64,000 nucleotides of DNA from IMG/VR virus record IMGVR_UViG_3300049460_000196, positions 32,001-96,000 of that record, one strand, 5' to 3'. Positions 14,385 through 39,549 of this stretch are shown one piece after another. The number at the start of each line of letters is the position of its first letter. Position 1 is the stretch's first letter. A program made the position numbers and the translations under genes. Below the pieces are notes generated by a model, which saw only the letters and a list, made by a program, of their open reading frames with translations, did not search any database and had not been told where the DNA came from. Origin of the DNA: a virus.

Positions 14385-15273
14385 TTAGTACCACTGAGAT
14401 TACATGGTCCTCGTTGACGCTTCGAACATTATTAGCCAGGATTGCGTCCCAACCTTCTTTCGATATCCACTAGAGCCCCTTTCGGGTAATCTAGTACGCC
14501 AACATCATCGCCGTTTTAAGTCAGGCAGTAGACTTGACACAGGGTGCTATTCTACGACTTTCCATCCGTTGACATTCGACTGCCATTAGAGCTTGCGGGC
14601 CCTACGAACTTCTTTTCATAAACCAACTAGGCCTTGCGAGCTTCGCTGAACTTGATTAACTTTCGTCTCAAGTATTAGATGATTTTCACACCCTGCCGAG
14701 GTAGACTTTGCATTTTGTATAAGTAAACGGTTTGATCGTTCGCTCTTTCTCCAATGAAAGTGCCATTTCTGGCGTGCAACTCACTGCGACGTGCTACCTC
14801 AGCTGCTCCAAAGTCTTTTGGACTCCAGAATACAACACGCCACGTATCTTTCGCCTCGCGGGCTACCGGATCGTCTTTCTCGACTAATGTCCACACCCTT
14901 GCGGATAGTCCACCAACCGATAAAACTGCATCATACCTCTTGGGTGCGACCCCTCGAAACATAACACTACCTTTCCCCGTACAAGATGGCAAGTTGGATT
15001 TGTGATGAGACTCGGCTCCCGCCATGTTCTCCCTCAACTGATGTTCCCTAACGAGCAAGCCCGCTAGGCATCTAAGCCAAGGTTCTTTCCATCACTCTTG
15101 CGTCCCAATTATCTCCAGGATAACCTGAAGTGCTTCCTTTCGGAAGCCGGGTCGGCTTGCATAACAGAACCACTTGCATGGCGCGGCTGCGTGAGCTTGA
15201 CCGCTTTCCCCGGGTTGCCCCGGCTCTTCCTTCCAATATACGGCAAGCCGTATACCGTGGAGCTATGCCCCCA
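14385..15273 (-). ncRNA. Large structured ncRNA, GOLLD-like
   Basis: ~890 nt with no convincing ORF and many GNRA-capped hairpins; segments GTGTTGTATT...CAAAAG, GACTTAAAA and terminal GTAATCTCAG match my recollection of GOLLD; next to tRNAs. Confidence 0.6.
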
Positions 15274-24557: not shown

Positions 24558-24642
24558 TGGTACCCTGAGCCGGAATCGAACCGGCACGCCTCACGGCGCT
24601 TGATTTTGAGTCAAGTGCGTCTACCAGTTCCGCCATCAGGGC
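24558..24642 (-). tRNA. tRNA-Leu(CAA), carried inside the split tRNA
   Basis: Canonical type II cloverleaf, CT CAA AA, CCA. Confidence 0.92.
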
Positions 24643-25091
24643 TCATTCTGTTTATATTGACTGCGTTTCTTACCAGTAAGAGCTTGAGCAATTTTCGCTC
24701 TATGTTCGGGAGATTTTGGCTTCCCTGCATTACCCTTACCAGCTTTACGTGCTTGCTCTACACCTCTACTCTGTGAGGCACATGCAGCTTCGTATCCATT
24801 CTTAGCGACATTCTGTTCCCAAAGCGTCATACCCGTATGGTCTACACGATCAATATAATTGTCTTTGTGCGTACCCCAATACAAATGATTGGGGTTACTG
24901 CATTTTTCATTATTGCAAGCATGACACAACAAAGTTGTGTGAGTTTCGGGTATGGTAGTTCCCAAAGTTGCTGCCAACAATCCGCGAAATTCAACTGATT
25001 TGCCACCACGTTCAACACATGGAAGTTCAAGAGCTAAATGACTACGGCGTTCTTCTCTACTCAGAAGCATATGGTCGATGATATTCATCAT
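24636..25091 (-). CDS. HNH/His-Cys-box-like homing endonuclease with NUMOD3
   Basis: LCHACNNEKCSNPNHLYWGTHKDN; KSPEHRAKIAQALTGKK; CTAAATA just upstream; stop overlaps tRNA 5' end. Confidence 0.85.
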   Translation of the reverse strand: MMNIIDHMLLSREERRSHLALELPCVERGGKSVEFRGLLAATLGTTIPETHTTLLCHACNNEKCSNPNHLYWGTHKDNYIDRVDHTGMTLWEQNVAKNGYEAACASQSRGVEQARKAGKGNAGKPKSPEHRAKIAQALTGKKRSQYKQNEP

Positions 25092-25106
25092 CTATTTAGT
25101 AAACAC

Positions 25107-25139
25107 GGCTGCTGTGTCTACCAATTCCACCATCCCCCA
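25107..25139 (-). pseudogene. 5' half of the split tRNA-Leu
   Basis: GGGGGA-TG-GTGGAATTGGTAGACAC-A-GCAGC; pairs with the acceptor strand at 24524-24530. Confidence 0.8.
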
Positions 25140-25152
25140 TAAGCGTATATTT

Positions 25153-25237
25153 TGGTGCCCAGAGCCGGAATCGAACCGGCACGCCTTGCGGCAGCGGATT
25201 TTGAGTCCGCCAAGTCTACCAGTTTCATCATCTGGGC
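25153..25237 (-). tRNA. tRNA-Leu(CAA)
   Basis: Type II cloverleaf, CCA. Confidence 0.92.
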
Positions 25238-27489: not shown

Positions 27490-27565
27490 TGGTGCTGATG
27501 AAGGGGATCGAACCCTTGACCTCTTCCTTACCGAGAAAGTGCTCTTCCAACTGAGCTACATCAGC
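27490..27565 (-). tRNA. tRNA-Thr(GGT)
   Basis: Cloverleaf, TC GGT AA, CCA. Confidence 0.88.
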
Positions 27566-27596
27566 GTTGAAGGGACGGGAAGAACTCCCGTCCCTT

Positions 27597-28166
27597 TTAG
27601 TTACCTGGCAACAGGCGACTTTTCTTCTGCACACCAGCCAGCAAAAATTCCATCTGGTCAGCCAGGATGTTGCGGTTACGCATGATCAATCCTTCGTTAC
27701 GGTCAGGTACGTATGGTACGTACAAGAGTGGCATTTTTGCTTCTTCAGGAGTACGGTCAGCTTTACGACTGTTGCATGGCTCGCAAGCCGCAACAATGTT
27801 CTGCCATGTGAATGGACCACCACGCGAGTCTGGCATGATGTGTTCCATGCGCAGGTCATCTTTATGGAACTGACCACCGCAGTAAGCACAGGTGTGACGG
27901 TCACGAAGAACCAGAGCATCCTTGCTCAAAGCAATCGACAAGCGGTGACGCTGATCGCTCTTGCCCTTTACTGCGATAATGGTTGGCACTCGCATGGTGG
28001 ACTGGTCACCATCACGATTGTGACCTCCGCGCAGAGTGATCTGCTCATCGCCCATTTCCCAAAGAATCTTACCCAGCGATTGCAGGTAAGCGTAGTGTTC
28101 AATATCTGACCACTGGGTTGGCGTACCATACGCATCCAGTGTCAATATCCGTATCCGATCCAACAT
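27597..28166 (-). CDS. HNH endonuclease (McrA-like)
   Basis: RDRHTCAYCG...EHIMPDSRGG..TWQNIVAACEPCNSRKADRTP. Confidence 0.9.
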   Translation of the reverse strand: MLDRIRILTLDAYGTPTQWSDIEHYAYLQSLGKILWEMGDEQITLRGGHNRDGDQSTMRVPTIIAVKGKSDQRHRLSIALSKDALVLRDRHTCAYCGGQFHKDDLRMEHIMPDSRGGPFTWQNIVAACEPCNSRKADRTPEEAKMPLLYVPYVPDRNEGLIMRNRNILADQMEFLLAGVQKKSRLLPGN

Positions 28167-30312: not shown

Positions 30313-31065
30313 TGGGGGCGGGTGGAGGACTCGAACCTCCGACAACGTCCTTACAAGGGAATTGAGGGTTATGCTGTGACTATCCTGATCAGGATCGTGC
30401 CTTTCGGCTTCTACAGCTAAATAAGGTCGCGAGATTGCAGTCTCCACCTTTCTAACGCTTTCAAGGAGCATCAGCATGGATATTTATCCGCCAACTTTTC
30501 TTTATATAAAACAACACGCAATTACTGGCAAACTTTACTTTGGCAAAACCGCAAAGGACCCAGAAACTTATTTGGGATCAGGCACTTATTGGCGCAAGCA
30601 TATCAAAAAACATGGAACAGAACATGTCATTACTGTGTGGTATTGTTTGTTTTATGACACGACAACAATAAGTGAATTTGCATTATCATTTTCGGCAATG
30701 CACAACATTGTTGAATCTACAGATTGGGCAAATCTTAGGCCTGAAAATGGTCTAGATGGTAACCTTCCTGGAAATGTCCCGTGGAATGTCGGACTAGAAG
30801 CACACAATAAAGGCACAACCAGTCCAAACAAAGGGCGAACTTTGTCAGTTCGTTCTCAAGAACATAAAGACAAAATATCAGCAAGCTTAACTGGTAAAAC
30901 CAAGTCTAGTAAACCTCAACCCAATCGAAAAGCACGGGTACATGTAAAACACGACACCGTAATCTGCCCTCATTGCGGAAAAACTGGCGGAAGTAATATA
31001 ATGGGTAGGTGGCATTTTTCTAATTGTCCAGCTAAGACGTGCTCTACCAACTGAGCTAACCCGCC
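30313..31065 (-). tRNA. tRNA-Thr(TGT) interrupted by a ~680 nt insertion
   Basis: 5' half 31035-31065 (GGCGGGT..CGTCT) and 3' half 30313-30357 (CT TGT AA GGACG..ACCCGCC-C-CCA) are complementary. Confidence 0.8.
30476..31054 (+). CDS. GIY-YIG (Seg-like) homing endonuclease with NUMOD3
   Basis: FLYIKQH..TGKLYFGKT..Y.GSG; RSQEHKDKISASLTGK; CPHCGK; CTAAATA upstream. Confidence 0.88.
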   Translation: MDIYPPTFLYIKQHAITGKLYFGKTAKDPETYLGSGTYWRKHIKKHGTEHVITVWYCLFYDTTTISEFALSFSAMHNIVESTDWANLRPENGLDGNLPGNVPWNVGLEAHNKGTTSPNKGRTLSVRSQEHKDKISASLTGKTKSSKPQPNRKARVHVKHDTVICPHCGKTGGSNIMGRWHFSNCPAKTCSTN

Positions 31066-31911: not shown

Positions 31912-32242
31912 CGATGGTAAGGAAATCTACCACTGGCCGTCGGCCATTAACGAAGCCAAAAATCAGGCTGATGTATTTGAAACCGTTGACCAGTTCGCGG
32001 TTCACGTCGACCGTGCATGGGTAACCAGCAGCACGAAACTTAGCTGCCAAGCGTTTCGCTGGCAACAGCTCGGATTTGTAGGGGTCAATCGTCAGGCGAG
32101 TAAAACCACCTTGCACAATCGACACATCACTTTTGTCGAACGTGTAACCAGCTGTTTGCATGAGTGCGACCATGTTGTTGATCGTCTTCTGTGCTTTTTT
32201 GCTTGGCTGTTTCATCTTCTGCTCCGCTTGTCTGTTTACCAT
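31877..32242 (-). CDS. Hypothetical protein (probable start MKQP)
   Basis: ORF with SD GGAG. Confidence 0.65.
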   Translation of the reverse strand: MVNRQAEQKMKQPSKKAQKTINNMVALMQTAGYTFDKSDVSIVQGGFTRLTIDPYKSELLPAKRLAAKFRAAGYPCTVDVNRELVNGFKYISLIFGFVNGRRPVVDFLTIDELYGTTIFQS

Positions 32243-33884: not shown

Positions 33885-33961
33885 TGGTTGCGGATGGGTG
33901 GATTCGAACCACCGACGTAGAGGTTATGAGCCTCCTCTTCTGACCACTGAATTACACCGCA
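33885..33961 (-). tRNA. tRNA with CAT anticodon (fMet-like, bulged acceptor)
   Basis: CT CAT AA, CCA. Confidence 0.75.
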
Positions 33962-35141: not shown

Positions 35142-35217
35142 TGGGGTGAAGGATGGGGATCGAACCCACGACGACCGGAATCACAATCCGGGACTCTACC
35201 ACTGAGCTACCTACACC
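35142..35217 (-). tRNA. tRNA-His(GTG)
   Basis: G-1, C73, CCA. Confidence 0.92.
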
Positions 35218-35227
35218 ATTGAAACTG

Positions 35228-35896
35228 TTACGGAAACTTCATCTTTCGACCAAGCTTCCAATTTCGAGAAAGCCACAAATCAATGTCTTCTCGATTTATC
35301 TTTATCGTGCGCTTTTCTATTTCAGAAAATATCCACATAGTGCCATACTGCGAGTTACCAGTACCGCGTGCGCTTTTTGATACGTTATCTCCAATTTTCT
35401 TCTTGGTTTCTTCGGTATGATTTTTACCTTTAAAACTGGGAGGCGGCGTGCCTGGTAAATTGGCTATGCCTGCTGATGATCTATTGGTTTTTGTTTGTTT
35501 TGCCCATTCGGGGTCATTATCTCTCAACCATTGCTGCCTTTGTTGACTGATCTTATTCTTGGCAGTTTGACGACATGAATCGGCATTAATGATATTGTTA
35601 GGCCAACTGCTACCACCTAAAGATATGTTCATACACATCGGATCAGTTAGCATTTCGGCACACACCAATTCTGCTTCGCGTTCTCTCAACCACTCCCTAC
35701 TGAAGTAATGCTCGAGAATCGCACATACGTGATTTTCCTTACCGTGAACATTAACTGATCGCCCAAGCAGTTTGCCAGAACCAATATAACCGTCATTCAG
35801 GTCATAAGTGCTGTGCATACCCAAGTAATATTTTCCAGTCACAATGCACGTGGTGCGATATATGTAATGATACTGTCTGTTGGTCATATCCGCCAT
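35228..35896 (-). CDS. GIY-YIG (Seg-like) homing endonuclease with NUMOD3
   Basis: HYIYRTTC.VTGKYYLGMHST...YIGSG; FKGKNHTEETKKKI. Confidence 0.9.
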   Translation of the reverse strand: MADMTNRQYHYIYRTTCIVTGKYYLGMHSTYDLNDGYIGSGKLLGRSVNVHGKENHVCAILEHYFSREWLREREAELVCAEMLTDPMCMNISLGGSSWPNNIINADSCRQTAKNKISQQRQQWLRDNDPEWAKQTKTNRSSAGIANLPGTPPPSFKGKNHTEETKKKIGDNVSKSARGTGNSQYGTMWIFSEIEKRTIKINREDIDLWLSRNWKLGRKMKFP

Positions 35897-35933
35897 TGTA
35901 TATGACCATTGATATGGTGCAATAAAGTATTAA

Positions 35934-36007
35934 GGGGTGGCCACCGAGAATTGAACTCGAGTAAACGGGATCACAACCCGCGTCATTAACCACTATGATA
36001 TGGCCAC
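35934..36007 (-). tRNA. tRNA-His(GTG), second copy lacking G-1 and full CCA
   Basis: Cloverleaf, TT GTG AT. Confidence 0.8.
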
Positions 36008-36980: not shown

Positions 36981-37056
36981 TGGTGGACGCGGTGGGGTTC
37001 GAACCCACGACCTTCGGATTAAGAGTCCGTTACTCTACCAGCTGAGTTACACGTCC
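36981..37056 (-). tRNA. tRNA-Lys(CTT)
   Basis: Cloverleaf, CCA. Confidence 0.92.
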
Positions 37057-37062
37057 GTACTG

Positions 37063-37138
37063 TGGTGGAAGTGGAGGGACTCGAACCCCCGTCGCACCGG
37101 TTAAGAGCCGGGCCTCTAGCCTGTTGAGTTACACTTCC
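37063..37138 (-). tRNA. tRNA-Lys(CTT)
   Basis: Cloverleaf, CCA. Confidence 0.88.
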
Positions 37139-37151
37139 AAGTGTATTTGAT

Positions 37152-37239
37152 TGGTGGGAGCAGTGGGGATCGAACCCACTCTGGACTTTCGTCTCGCCGG
37201 ATTAAAAGTCCGGTGCCTACCCAATTCGGCATTACTCCC
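37152..37239 (-). tRNA. tRNA-Lys(TTT) with long variable arm
   Basis: CT TTT AA; variable hairpin GAC-GAAA-GTC. Confidence 0.82.
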
Positions 37240-37249
37240 TGTGAAACAA

Positions 37250-37324
37250 TGGTAGGGCCGCAGGAGCTCGAATCCTGTTTGTCTGGTTAAAAGCCAGATA
37301 CTTCACCATTAAAGTTTCAACCCC
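37250..37324 (-). tRNA. tRNA-Lys(TTT)
   Basis: CT TTT AA, CCA. Confidence 0.85.
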
Positions 37325-37395
37325 TTTGATTTGACGTGGCACACGTCGATCTCGGGGGTGGCAGGAGCAATCCAATCAAACAACTACACTTGGAA

Positions 37396-37440
37396 TTACT
37401 TAGTCACCCCCGAAAGTTTGCCAGATTTGTCACTTTCCAT
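37396..37440 (-). CDS. Lys-containing micro-ORF MESDKSGKLSGVTK (candidate leader)
   Basis: SD AAAGGAG; 3' part TCGGGGGTGAC pairs with GCCACCCCCGA at 37342-37352. Confidence 0.55.
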   Translation of the reverse strand: MESDKSGKLSGVTK

Positions 37441-37470
37441 GACAGGCTCCTTTCAGAAATGTAATTTGGA

Positions 37471-37593
37471 TATTGCGATTTACCAGGTATCCCAATGACG
37501 AGACCAATCGCTCCAACAGGCTGGAGTTCCAGATGATGCGCATTCAACTCGCGTTGACCATACGTGCCACTCACGGCATAACACCTCGCAATA
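37471..37593 (-). ncRNA. Unknown structured RNA
   Basis: Closing stem TATTGCGA/TCGCAATA with internal hairpins. Confidence 0.4.
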
Positions 37594-37598
37594 AAACT

Positions 37599-37674
37599 TG
37601 GTGGAGGATATCGGGATCGAACCGATGACCTTTAGCTTGCAAAGCTACTGCTCTCCCAGCTGAGCTAATCCCCC
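37599..37674 (-). tRNA. tRNA-Ala(TGC)
   Basis: Canonical, G3-U70. Confidence 0.93.
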
Positions 37675-37764
37675 AGGGTGGCAATGTTTGTACCGGTATG
37701 GCAAACATCACCCGCACATGCCGACTAGAACCTTTTCAGGGGATGAGGACATGAACGTTTAACT

Positions 37765-37841
37765 TGGTCTCCAGTGCAAGATTCGAACTTGCGCCCCATG
37801 GTCCCAAACCACGTGGATTAACCTGACTTTCCTAACCGGAG
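37765..37841 (-). tRNA. tRNA-Pro(TGG)
   Basis: TT TGG GA, CCA. Confidence 0.88.
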
Positions 37842-37850
37842 ATAAAAACT

Positions 37851-37890
37851 TGGTATCTAGTACTGGTCTCGAACCAGTGACCTCATCGAT
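37851..37890 (-). pseudogene. 3' half (nt 37-76) of a split tRNA, probably Val(GAC)
   Basis: AT-CGATG-AGGTC-T arm-ACTAGAT-A-CCA. Confidence 0.85.
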
Positions 37891-38148
37891 TTAATCGATT
37901 GTACCGTTGACTTTTATTTGTACAAGATCGCTAAACATTTTAGAGATCCCACTCAACTCATTCAAATAATCTTCCGTCAACTTATCGTCTTCGGTTAATT
38001 CAACTTTTAAATTAAGTTCAGCTCTTTGTTCTTGTACTTGTTTGTGAATAAGTGCAGTGGCCACTTGCAATGTGTCGATTGGTAAACTACTCGCCAACAT
38101 AGCTACTGCATTCCGAAGTGCCAATATTTGTACTTGAGTTGATGACAT
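37891..38148 (-). CDS. Hypothetical protein (cassette cargo)
   Basis: 85 aa, SD AAGGAG; stop lies exactly at the insertion junction. Confidence 0.7.
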   Translation of the reverse strand: MSSTQVQILALRNAVAMLASSLPIDTLQVATALIHKQVQEQRAELNLKVELTEDDKLTEDYLNELSGISKMFSDLVQIKVNGTID

Positions 38149-38207
38149 ATGATTCTCCTTTAGAACAAACAGGATGCACATGTTTTTGTCATACCGCAAT
38201 ATTATTC

Positions 38208-38282
38208 TGGTACTCACGGAAGGAATTGAACCTTCGACCCTCTCCACGTCAAGGAGGCATTCTACCACTGAACTACGTGAGC
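38208..38282 (-). tRNA. tRNA-Val(GAC), carried in the cassette
   Basis: TT GAC GT loop, CCA. Confidence 0.88.
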
Positions 38283-38283
38283 A

Positions 38284-38637
38284 TTATCTTTTCTTGTTAC
38301 CCCAGGTAGGGGTCTGTCTGTGGCAGTTTGGACACAGAAATCTCAAATTATCTGGATGATTGTTGGTCTTTACCCCATCCATATGGTCGATATCCAAACT
38401 AAGTGGTTTACCGCACCAGTCACTTACTGCACAACATGAACAGGCATAACCGTCGCGTTCCGTTAAGAACTTGATCATCGCCGGGCTATTATAATGAACA
38501 GCACCTTGCAATATTTTCGGTTTGGTAACCGATATCCAGGTAAATGCGTGTTGGCATTTGTTCGAGCAGTATTTGCCATTAAATGCTGGCGGTTTATACT
38601 TTGTTGGTTTACCACAATTGATACATGATCTTTCCAT
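38284..38637 (-). CDS. HNH endonuclease
   Basis: CINCG..YCSNKC; LDIDHMDGVKTNNHPDNLRFLCPNCH; TATAAATA upstream. Confidence 0.9.
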   Translation of the reverse strand: MERSCINCGKPTKYKPPAFNGKYCSNKCQHAFTWISVTKPKILQGAVHYNSPAMIKFLTERDGYACSCCAVSDWCGKPLSLDIDHMDGVKTNNHPDNLRFLCPNCHRQTPTWGNKKR

Positions 38638-38675
38638 ATAAGCACCTTTTCAGGTATTTATAAGAGCGATCTGGT

Positions 38676-38710
38676 TCAACGATGTGCTCTACCAACTGAG
38701 CTAACTAGAT
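38676..38710 (-). pseudogene. 5' half (nt 1-35) of the split tRNA
   Basis: ATCTAGT-TA-D arm-CATCG-TT-GA; pairs with the 3' half at 37851. Confidence 0.85.
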
Positions 38711-38719
38711 ATTGAAACT

Positions 38720-38794
38720 TGGCAGCGAATCTAGGGCTCGAACCTAGGACCTTGAGATTCAAAATCTCCTGCTCTACCTCTGAGCTAATCCGCA
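38720..38794 (-). tRNA. tRNA-Gln(TTG)
   Basis: Cloverleaf, G73, CCA. Confidence 0.88.
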
Positions 38795-38803
38795 ACTGAA
38801 ACT

Positions 38804-38883
38804 TGGCGACCTAGATGGGTATCGAACCCACCTGAATATCTTCCGTGACAGGGAAGTGACCACTCCATGCAGTCCCCTAGGCC
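38804..38883 (-). tRNA. tRNA-Asp(GTC)
   Basis: CT GTC AC, CCA. Confidence 0.85.
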
Positions 38884-38900
38884 ATATTACTAATTGTCAA

Positions 38901-38972
38901 TGGTCCCTCGTGATGGAGTCGAACCACCCTATTAGCGTTCGTAGCGCCAATGCCGTATCCCACGGACGAGAG
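38901..38972 (-). tRNA. Compact tRNA-Arg(ACG)
   Basis: Same architecture as 20063-20134; CT ACG AA. Confidence 0.75.
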
Positions 38973-38984
38973 AAATATTCTTAG

Positions 38985-39070
38985 TTGCGGGCCCTGGATT
39001 TGAACCAGGACAAGCATTAGATGTCTCGGGATTATGAGCCCCGCGTGTTACCAGGTTACACTAACCCGCG
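38985..39070 (-). tRNA. Initiator tRNA-fMet(CAT) with long variable region, no CCA
   Basis: C1-A72 mismatch, G-rich anticodon stem, 17-nt variable region. Confidence 0.75.
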
Positions 39071-39100
39071 ACTAAGAATACTTGGTATTACATACTTGAA

Positions 39101-39179
39101 TGGTGCGTCAGGCAGGGTTCGAACCTGCATGTGTCCAGTTACCTTTCGCCTGGTTCGTAGCCAAGGGGGATACTGACGC
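39101..39179 (-). tRNA. Atypical tRNA-Arg(ACG), D-loop displaced into the variable region
   Basis: GCGTCAG-TA-TCCCC-CTTGG-CT ACG AA-CCAGG-CGAAAGGTAACTGGACACAT-T arm-CTGACGC-A-CCA. Confidence 0.68.
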
Positions 39180-39181
39180 TT

Positions 39182-39256
39182 TGGTAGTTCCTGTTGGGAT
39201 CGAACCAACGACCTTCGCCTTGTAAGGGCGCTGCGCTACCTCTGCGCCAAGGAACC
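39182..39256 (-). tRNA. tRNA-Val(TAC)
   Basis: Cloverleaf, CCA. Confidence 0.9.
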
Positions 39257-39272
39257 ATTGCATTGTTGATTG

Positions 39273-39349
39273 TGGTCGCTTCTGATAGTATCGACGTATC
39301 GTCTACCCCTCTTCACGGGGCCGCTAGTACCATTCTCAGCTAAGAAGCA
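39273..39349 (-). tRNA. tRNA-Phe(GAA), divergent T loop
   Basis: GT GAA GA loop; T loop GTCGATA. Confidence 0.65.
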
Positions 39350-39382
39350 AGTTTTTATCAACAACGATTTACTACAAAAATC

Positions 39383-39457
39383 TGGCAGGGAATGTTGGGC
39401 TTGAACCAACGACCTTCGGATTCAGAATCCGCTGCTCTACCTCTGAGCTAATCCCCA
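39383..39457 (-). tRNA. tRNA-Gln(CTG)
   Basis: Cloverleaf, CCA. Confidence 0.88.
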
Positions 39458-39474
39458 ACTGTGTACTACTAAAC

Positions 39475-39549
39475 TGGTGCCCCAGGATGGAATCGAACCA
39501 CCGCACGCTGCTTACAAAACAGCACCTCTACCATTAAGGATACAAGGGC
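39475..39549 (-). tRNA. tRNA-Thr(TGT)
   Basis: TT TGT AA, CCA. Confidence 0.85.

Follow-up and report, generated by a model that had tools for sequence, protein, structure and literature searches.

The 64,000-nucleotide stretch of viral DNA analyzed here (the window) spans positions 32,001 to 96,000 of IMG/VR virus record IMGVR_UViG_3300049460_000196, a 113-kb linear contig with an estimated completeness of 27%. It contains a tRNA gene that is divided at its anticodon by an insert encoding an HNH endonuclease and a second, intact tRNA. The contig belongs to a large uncultured phage, and its proteins share 45 to 48% identity with their counterparts in phiCbK-like jumbo phages of Caulobacter and Brevundimonas. 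The kin of this virus are phiCbK-like siphophages, not T4. Across the contig, ARAGORN identifies 55 tRNA genes, 50 of which are in the window, along with one tmRNA-like call, and all of these are located on the minus strand. This array includes five endonuclease genes in total, one of which is the HNH gene of the divided tRNA gene.

The 5′ half of the divided gene (38676..38710, minus strand) comprises nucleotides 1 to 35 of a tRNA, including the acceptor strand ATCTAGT, a D arm with the stem GCTC/GAGC, the anticodon-stem strand CATCG, and the loop nucleotides TTGA. The 3′ half (37851..37890, minus strand) comprises nucleotides 37 to 76, beginning with the loop nucleotides AT and continuing through CGATG, the variable loop AGGTC, the T arm ACTGG/CCAGT, the acceptor strand ACTAGAT, A73, and CCA. 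When joined, the two halves form a canonical cloverleaf with seven of seven acceptor pairs, the GCTC/GAGC D stem, five of five pairs in both the anticodon stem and the T stem, and an encoded CCA. Between the halves, the acceptor and anticodon stems contain 12 pairs, each of the Watson–Crick type, and the conserved nucleotides U8, A14, G18 G19, U33, T54 T55 C56, and A58 are all present. Both halves were therefore confirmed to lie where the original prediction had placed them on the minus strand, and to yield a cloverleaf on joining. Whichever base is placed at position 36, ARAGORN recognizes the joined sequence as a tRNA, and that base alone determines whether the call is Phe, Val, Leu, or Ile. 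A purpose-written split-tRNA finder, which was run over both strands of the whole 113-kb contig, returned only two convincing cases, at 38710..37851 and at 31065..30317. Chance is therefore no explanation for the matched halves.

The halves are separated by an insert of 785 nucleotides (nt) that stands in place of anticodon position 36 (37891..38675, minus strand), in which the noncoding stretches measure only 38, 1, and 59 nt. The 38-nt leader contains a TATAAATA motif (38655..38662, minus strand) located 18 nt before the start codon of the HNH open reading frame (ORF). This ORF (38284..38637, minus strand) encodes a protein of 117 amino acids with an N-terminal Cys4 zinc ribbon and a C-terminal HNH domain, and its codon usage is atypical relative to the long genes of the phage. 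One nucleotide after the HNH stop codon is an intact tRNA-Val(GAC) gene (38208..38282, minus strand) with the loop TTGACGT, called by ARAGORN and matched by Rfam at 63.3 bits, which we term the passenger tRNA. This tRNA and the joined halves agree at 50 of 76 positions, and they differ at 5 of 11 positions in the core of the anticodon arm. The 59-nt spacer that follows carries an AAGGAG ribosome-binding site for ORF85 (37891..38148, minus strand), which encodes 85 amino acids and whose TAA stop codon abuts the 3′ half of the tRNA. The content of the insert (an HNH gene, an intact and diverged tRNA-Val(GAC), and an 85-amino-acid ORF) and its length of 785 nt agree with what had been claimed. 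The carried tRNA had also been described as the only GAC tRNA, which holds for the contig on checking the ARAGORN calls and three further tRNA genes recognized only by Rfam, in a record that is 27% complete. ORF85 appears to be coding on the basis of its codon usage and has a confident helical model in Atlas (a predicted structure), and no family or relative was found in Pfam, IMG/VR, an index of 5.8 billion proteins, 1.84 billion representatives, or Atlas. We regard ORF85 as donor or local DNA rather than as an established component of the mobile unit.

The insert had been proposed to sit exactly at anticodon position 36. This placement fits the DNA, but its exactness is not forced because an A residue is present on both flanks of the insert (TTGA/A... 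and ...TTAA/AT). These residues permit an alternative reading in which nucleotides 1 to 36 are joined to nucleotides 37 to 76 to form a GAA tRNA. Two other Phe(GAA) genes are kept in the array. The insertion junctions are located outside of repeated k-mers, and only D-arm and T-arm sequences recur elsewhere in the contig, with repeats of up to ~22 nt in the D arm. At the 3′ junction (37885-37905, minus strand), the palindrome ATCGAT occurs twice, with the stop codon of ORF85 between the two copies (ATCGAT-TAA-ATCGAT). Also, the final 9 nt of the insert match tRNA positions 28 to 36 at six of nine nucleotides if C36 is assumed. The doubled palindrome and the partial match could be a footprint of repair or could have arisen by chance.

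The loop context of the split gene, TT-GA?-AT, together with the rest of its anticodon arm, makes it very probable that the gene originally encoded tRNA-Val(GAC). Among 462 distinct tRNAs compiled from this contig and 91 related phage loci, the dinucleotide A37-T38 is present in 13 of 99 tRNAs with C36 vs. 0 of 114 with A36. By isotype, it occurs in four of seven Val(GAC) tRNAs, in none of 21 Phe(GAA) tRNAs, and in none of 11 Ile(GAT) tRNAs. The same preference is apparent in Escherichia coli, where the valV and valW loops read TTGACAT and the pheV loop reads TTGAAAA. Furthermore, the HNH-linked Val(GAC) genes of two of the related loci (L003 and L016) carry CGTTGACATCG, which is the split arm with C36 restored, and the Val(GAC) gene of the kin phage CcrBL9 differs across the arm and variable loop by only one compensatory pair and position 32. 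A scan of 2.9 million viral contigs in IMG/VR for CATCGTTGANATCGATGAGGTC, a 22-nt pattern comprising the arm and variable loop with any nucleotide at position 36, yielded two unrelated contigs, both with C36. One match lies in a contig of 405 kb and is an intact tRNA-Val(GAC) gene; no HNH gene is near either match. The earlier assignment of the broken loop to Val(GAC) is thus the best reading by loop context, by arm identity, and by the scan of position 36, wherein C36 itself is no longer present. If the gene indeed was Val(GAC), then C36 would have been lost or one of the flanking A residues would be an altered C36. Overall similarity of the tRNA body was uninformative as a guide to isotype, since the nearest neighbors are Asn, Ile, Lys, Met, and Val tRNAs, and the identity of the split gene is judged from its anticodon arm instead. 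The anticodon TAA, which ARAGORN proposes in intron mode by cutting after U33, was ruled out in a tRNA body that lacks a long variable arm.

The HNH protein matches PHROG 10822 (“HNH endonuclease”) with an E value of 4.7e-24, and its score of 24.2 bits with Pfam HNH_3 is just below the cut-off of 24.8. The HNH core, DH(85)...N(97)...CPNCH(106), and Cys66/69/102/105 are invariant across 28 homologues. All 26 family-invariant residues, which include the zinc-ribbon cysteines and the catalytic core, are kept in the window protein, indicating that the gene is intact. A large protein index contains 173 homologues, the best of which (P0001) is 79% identical and has a read-through tail that back-translates to the same tRNA 5′ end. 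From this correspondence, we infer that the P0001 tail encodes the 5′ end of a tRNA.

To survey synteny, 91 loci encoding homologues were fetched and 101 HNH ORFs were scored, including that of the window. The loci of 89 of these ORFs contain tRNA genes, and 37 ORFs have a same-strand tRNA gene no more than 30 nt past the stop codon. Among the 29 full-length homologues (window included), 18 have a tRNA gene at the stop codon, and 12 of these 18 tRNAs are Val (five GAC, with the window counted, and seven TAC). Among the closest full-length relatives, the four with a tRNA gene at the stop codon (L002, L003, L016, and L017, with 50-52% identity) all carry Val(GAC) there, at −10 to +7 nt from the end of the HNH gene. 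Another relative (L001, 54% identity) has Val(GAC) 60 nt upstream of its HNH gene and Gly(TCC) downstream. In a weakly resolved tree of HNH proteins, the window gene falls in a group where eight of ten members precede tRNA-Val. The identity of the downstream tRNA is clustered on this tree, requiring 14 changes vs. 19.1 in shuffled versions, and 0 of 200 shuffles gave a value so low. The synteny and the clustering indicate that the HNH gene and tRNA-Val are inherited together, as is expected of a free-standing homing gene residing beside its target. The family likewise combines a sporadic distribution with conserved linkage to a target, a pattern expected of homing endonucleases. We also considered the possibility that every HNH gene is preceded by a 5′ tRNA fragment serving as a portable homology arm, and this was not significant across the 37 loci. 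Short fragments of this kind are present upstream of the HNH genes at L016:3940-3975, where the fragment resembles the tRNA-Val of its sister contig L017, and at L068:3897-3925, where it resembles the downstream tRNA-Ile.

An insert in an anticodon loop might be expected to be removed as an intron. An Rfam search of positions 37000-39500 gave no intron match at E values up to 1, with the Intron_gpI model included. The same search does detect Intron_gpI in tRNA inserts of two related loci, L078 (minus strand, 741-958; 209 nt, 27.8 bits) and L083:986-1205 (211 nt, 45.5 bits), and these two inserts are group I introns in phage tRNA genes. The noncoding space in the window insert totals only 98 nt, which leaves little room for a ribozyme. 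The bases typical of group I splice sites are also absent, in that no boundary that produces a 7-nt loop and a GAN anticodon provides a U at the end of the 5′ exon and a G at the end of the intron. When the halves were folded together with the insert ends, no bulge-helix-bulge of the 3-4-3 form was observed. The Rfam search, the boundary bases, and the folds thus rule out introns of the group I, group II, and bulge-helix-bulge types. An intron shaped like a tRNA was likewise rejected, because the only helix formed between the insert ends is 5 bp long (GATCG/CGATT) and no T-loop is present. Models for RtcB, Rnl2-type, and T4 Rnl1-type RNA ligases had no match in the 113 kb, where the Rnl1 model was also silent on its control; because the record is only 27% complete, the absence of a ligase match says little. 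As far as can be told from these sequence features, the insert is not an intron.

Beginning with what is directly observed, namely the anatomy of the locus, the tRNA-Val synteny, the absence of any ribozyme signal, and the Val(GAC) character of the broken arm, we consider it probable that a DNA-level insertion placed an HNH gene and its trailing tRNA-Val(GAC) within the anticodon of a resident tRNA-Val(GAC) gene. In our reading, the element is a free-standing homing cassette that came into this gene through nonhomologous repair, put it out of action, and now provides a diverged copy of it. The original prediction had described the locus as intron-less homing in which the target is destroyed and then complemented. 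The Val(GAC) origin, the lack of a ribozyme, the synteny with tRNA-Val, and the diverged copy stand in its favor, and the interpretation as a whole is supported in part. According to this scheme, the HNH enzyme would have cleaved the resident Val(GAC) gene within or beside its anticodon. Instead of clean gene conversion, repair of the break would have involved illegitimate end-joining or the copying of a donor stretch. The donor stretch would have run from the HNH leader through tRNA-Val into downstream DNA that is now ORF85, and C36 would have been lost during the repair. We propose that repair was illegitimate because the donor and recipient arrays shared no flanking homology. The resident gene would now consist of two dead halves, and Val(GAC) decoding would be supplied by the passenger copy, which differs in its anticodon arm as noted above and would presumably resist cleavage. 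No halves are seen in the usual members of the HNH family, as is expected if homing ordinarily proceeds by clean gene conversion, in which case the window locus would be a rare footprint of the cut site. We also count in favor of a homing cassette the atypical codon usage of the HNH gene and the fact that two of the four other endonuclease genes of the array lie between tRNA genes with the same anticodon (His/His and Leu(CAA)).

Several observations weigh against this reading. The halves exhibit no decay at all, which fits a very recent insertion and equally fits a retained function. Excision that keeps one flanking A would yield a lossless 76-nt GAA tRNA, whereas a Val tRNA requires that one base was lost or changed. 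The tRNA body outside of the anticodon arm is nearest to Asn, Ile, Met, and Lys tRNAs and is not specifically Val-like. The CGTTGACATCG arm alone cannot confer sensitivity to cleavage, because it is carried by the HNH-linked tRNA-Val genes of L003 and L016. ORF85 belongs to no conserved cassette, and the record is a metagenome assembly. Finally, neither IMG/VR nor the phage collection yielded a close relative with an empty-site allele. Specifically, an exact-pattern search of IMG/VR for the joined arm with D-arm and variable-loop flanks, with the anticodon given as N, returned no match; exact patterns of the tRNA 5′ half and of the neighboring tRNA-Gln gene retrieved nothing from IMG/VR; and a conserved 604-amino-acid protein revealed no close kin in IMG/VR.

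Some of these observations would be accommodated if the resident gene had been of the Phe(GAA) type or had carried another GAN anticodon, such as Ile(GAU). The cassette would then have landed off target or by unrelated recombination, tRNA-Val would be a mere passenger, and nothing would be complemented. With one flanking A kept, no base is missing from the GAA tRNA, and the best body matches in the phage collection are annotated as Ile and Lys. Moreover, TTGAAAT is one base removed from TTGACAT and might be cut by a Val-directed enzyme. We nevertheless regard a GAN origin other than Val as unlikely, given that A37-T38 is not found in any of the A36, Phe(GAA), or Ile(GAT) tRNAs counted above and that both IMG/VR occurrences of the exact arm are GAC. 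The variable loops of E. coli pheV and of the Phe(GAA) genes of L002 and L003 are also of the GTGT type and not AGGTC. Alternatively, a chimeric assembly could have produced the two junctions, or they could be the scar of a recombination event that did not involve the HNH gene, such as shuffling of the array between repeated tRNA sequences. The metagenomic origin of the contig and the D-arm repeats of up to ~22 nt provide an opening for such events, but the junctions are in the anticodon loop, away from the repeated D-arm and T-arm k-mers. The halves also match over 12 base pairs, as those of a random chimera would not, and the insert begins with a family-typical HNH leader and keeps the order of HNH gene then tRNA-Val. 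The chance that the locus is an artifact or scar of this kind is, in our estimate, very slight.

The flawless state of the halves would also be explained if the insert were an intron at the RNA level, wherein the halves are rejoined by proteins, for example by tRNA-processing nucleases and an RNA ligase, and the resident tRNA works. Both split tRNAs of the contig have flawless halves, and all parts of this locus are on the array's own strand. Lak phages are described as having unexplained tRNA introns, one of them possibly tRNA-encoding (PMC6784885). Against an RNA-level intron of the Lak “enigmatic” kind stand the lack of a ribozyme signal in a search that detects the L078 and L083 introns, boundaries without the U and G of group I introns, insert ends that fold neither like a tRNA nor as a bulge-helix-bulge, and the lack of an RtcB- or Rnl-type ligase match in the 113 kb of a record that is only 27% complete. 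Excision of the internal tRNA-Val would leave the halves on two RNAs with ~390 and ~320 nt of extra sequence. Also, if the gene was Val(GAC), then position 36 is missing and precise joining would give either a 6-nt loop or GAA. Rejoining at the RNA level thus seems to us very unlikely for this locus. A broader form of the same idea, that the tRNA-Val insert and the insert in the second split gene, tRNA-Thr(UGU) at 31065..30317, are both removed from RNA by a ribozyme-free, protein-dependent cut-and-ligate pathway, we judge to be highly improbable. If it were true, the inserts would be mobile introns of a class new to bacterial viruses, and selection rather than youth would keep the halves flawless.

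Among known systems, SegB of T4 is a free-standing GIY-YIG homing endonuclease in a tRNA gene cluster (PMC2330249; also PMC13096335). Like the HNH gene studied here, its gene resides in a phage tRNA cluster; SegB recognizes a sequence within tRNA genes (the T-psi-C motif) and spreads neighboring tRNA genes without an intron. Unlike the HNH enzyme, SegB is of the GIY-YIG type and its gene lies between intact tRNA genes, and no split target with halves or spare tRNA with the same anticodon has been described for it. SegB is the closest tested system. Free-standing HNH genes of T-even phages, such as mobE beside nrdB (PMC2790892), similarly lie beside their targets and spread by double-strand-break repair with co-conversion of their flanks. 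However, they are intergenic and leave the neighboring gene whole, whereas the window cassette interrupts the functional center of its target and carries a replacement. Group I introns occupy the anticodon loops of bacterial tRNA-Leu UAA, fMet, Ile, and Arg genes, and some contain homing endonuclease ORFs (PMC3984707). The L078 and L083 inserts are of this kind, and the window insert shares with group I introns the anticodon-loop position and the possibility of an internal endonuclease ORF. It differs in that its 98 nt of noncoding sequence hold no detectable ribozyme core, its boundaries lack the splice-site U and G, and it contains a tRNA gene and a second ORF. Lak megaphages likewise have tRNA genes broken by “enigmatic” introns of an unrecognized class, with both insert-bearing and insert-free alleles and, in one case, possibly an encoded tRNA (Devoto et al. 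2019, PMC6784885); the text consulted describes no endonuclease gene within these introns. HNH genes near tRNAs of mycobacteriophages and of cyanobacterial L-arrays (PMC6409571, PMC8421152) are a conserved feature of these arrays or their immediate surroundings, and a role in spreading the arrays has been proposed. These reports concern neighborhood only, and involve neither insertion into a tRNA gene nor pairing with a particular tRNA. In the literature, we found no paper on a cassette of nuclease plus tRNA in the anticodon of a tRNA gene with that same anticodon. We view the window cassette as a variant of free-standing, intron-less homing.

Two modes of survival are generally ascribed to homing endonuclease genes, which either lie hidden within self-splicing introns and inteins or reside harmlessly between genes. 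The locus described here suggests a third way, in which the gene enters the functional center of its target and carries a diverged spare of that target. If this is true, then the HNH proteins would be a candidate family of endonucleases specific for tRNA genes, with a recognition site that is probably centered on the anticodon arm, and the preserved halves would mark the likely cleavage point at anticodon positions 35 to 37. Such a process would also offer an explanation for how tRNA genes duplicate, turn over, and spread horizontally in the tRNA arrays of jumbo phages.

The TATAAATA motif in the leader had been taken for a late promoter. It occurs three times in the 64 kb vs. 1.4 expected, and at least three times in 16 of 100 shuffles. 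This lack of enrichment, in a phage whose kin are phiCbK-like, gives no support to a T4-type late promoter; gp55 was not searched for. In the window, the motif pairs with the start-codon region within a local hairpin (fold z = −3.9). In several relatives, ATAAATA occupies the loop of a hairpin, GTAGAG...CTCTAC-ATG, whose 3′ arm ends at the HNH start codon. Strong hairpins of this (G)GTAGAG...ATAAATA...CTCTAC(C) type precede the HNH ATG in many homologues, at L002:2950-2990, L003:2920-2955, L004:4895-4950, L018:190-228, L040:3918-3966, L068:3910-3948, and L072:2965-3006. The leader hairpins of HNH relatives have fold z-scores down to −7.4, and their 5′ arm is similar to the 3′ strand of a tRNA D arm. 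In T4, a late promoter located inside a hairpin frees a sequestered start site, and the leader hairpin of the relatives resembles this arrangement. The hairpin of the relatives may be a translational switch borne by the cassette. The hairpin in the window differs from the GTAGAG...CTCTAC type; with its TATAAATA motif, it may be a cassette-borne control element, and it does not count as evidence for a late promoter in this phage.

Four further endonuclease genes are distributed through the array. The second split tRNA, tRNA-Thr(TGT) (31065..30317, minus strand), has a 5′ part at 31065..31035 and the loop CTTGTAA plus the 3′ part at 30357..30317. Its insert of ~680 nt lies at the 31/32 boundary, the halves are flawless, and no Rfam intron match was obtained. 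Within it, on the plus strand, is a GIY-YIG-like homing endonuclease gene (30476-31054; PHROG 314/655), the 3′ end of which overlaps the 5′ part of the tRNA. An intact Thr(TGT) gene is present at 39478-39549. A homing endonuclease gene (35896..35228, minus strand; PHROG 314, E value 2e-30) lies between two diverged tRNA-His(GTG) genes (locus 35142-36007), and an HNH gene (25091..24636, minus strand) lies between two Leu(CAA) genes (locus 24558-25237). The Leu(CAA) genes align with few mismatches between the variable arm and the 3′ end, but they differ in their D and anticodon stems, and a compensatory pair distinguishes their acceptor stems; these two genes look like a nuclease-linked tRNA duplication. 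Another HNH gene (28166..27597, minus strand; PHROG 16726, E value 1e-22) ends 31 nt before tRNA-Thr(GGT) (locus 27490-28166). The tRNA genes found by Rfam and missed by ARAGORN, all on the minus strand, are at 33889-33960 (CAT), 37253-37324 (TTT), and 39478-39549 (TGT).

A separate clade of proteins, homologous to the window protein in the HNH domain only, is encoded inside split tRNAs at L044:301-1379, L046:1203-2307, L051:550-1508, and L069 and L079:3642-4712. In this clade, the loop on the 5′ side is CTCTTAA, the insert is ~1 kb, and a noncoding 3′ stretch of ~170 nt terminates in a conserved AAATGAAA. These inserts have no Rfam group I match, and the joined anticodon is CTT or CTA depending on the choice of boundary. 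At L002:2826-2940, there is a 115-nt tRNA-like gene without an ARAGORN call that has good acceptor, D, and T arms and ~40 extra nt in the anticodon region. A RAGATH-14 RNA (174 bits) adjoins a tRNA at L069:1459-1629, in a gut-phage contig. In the window itself, a full-length GOLLD RNA (14391-14843, minus strand; Rfam RF02032, 203 bits, E value 7e-56) borders the tRNA-rich region.

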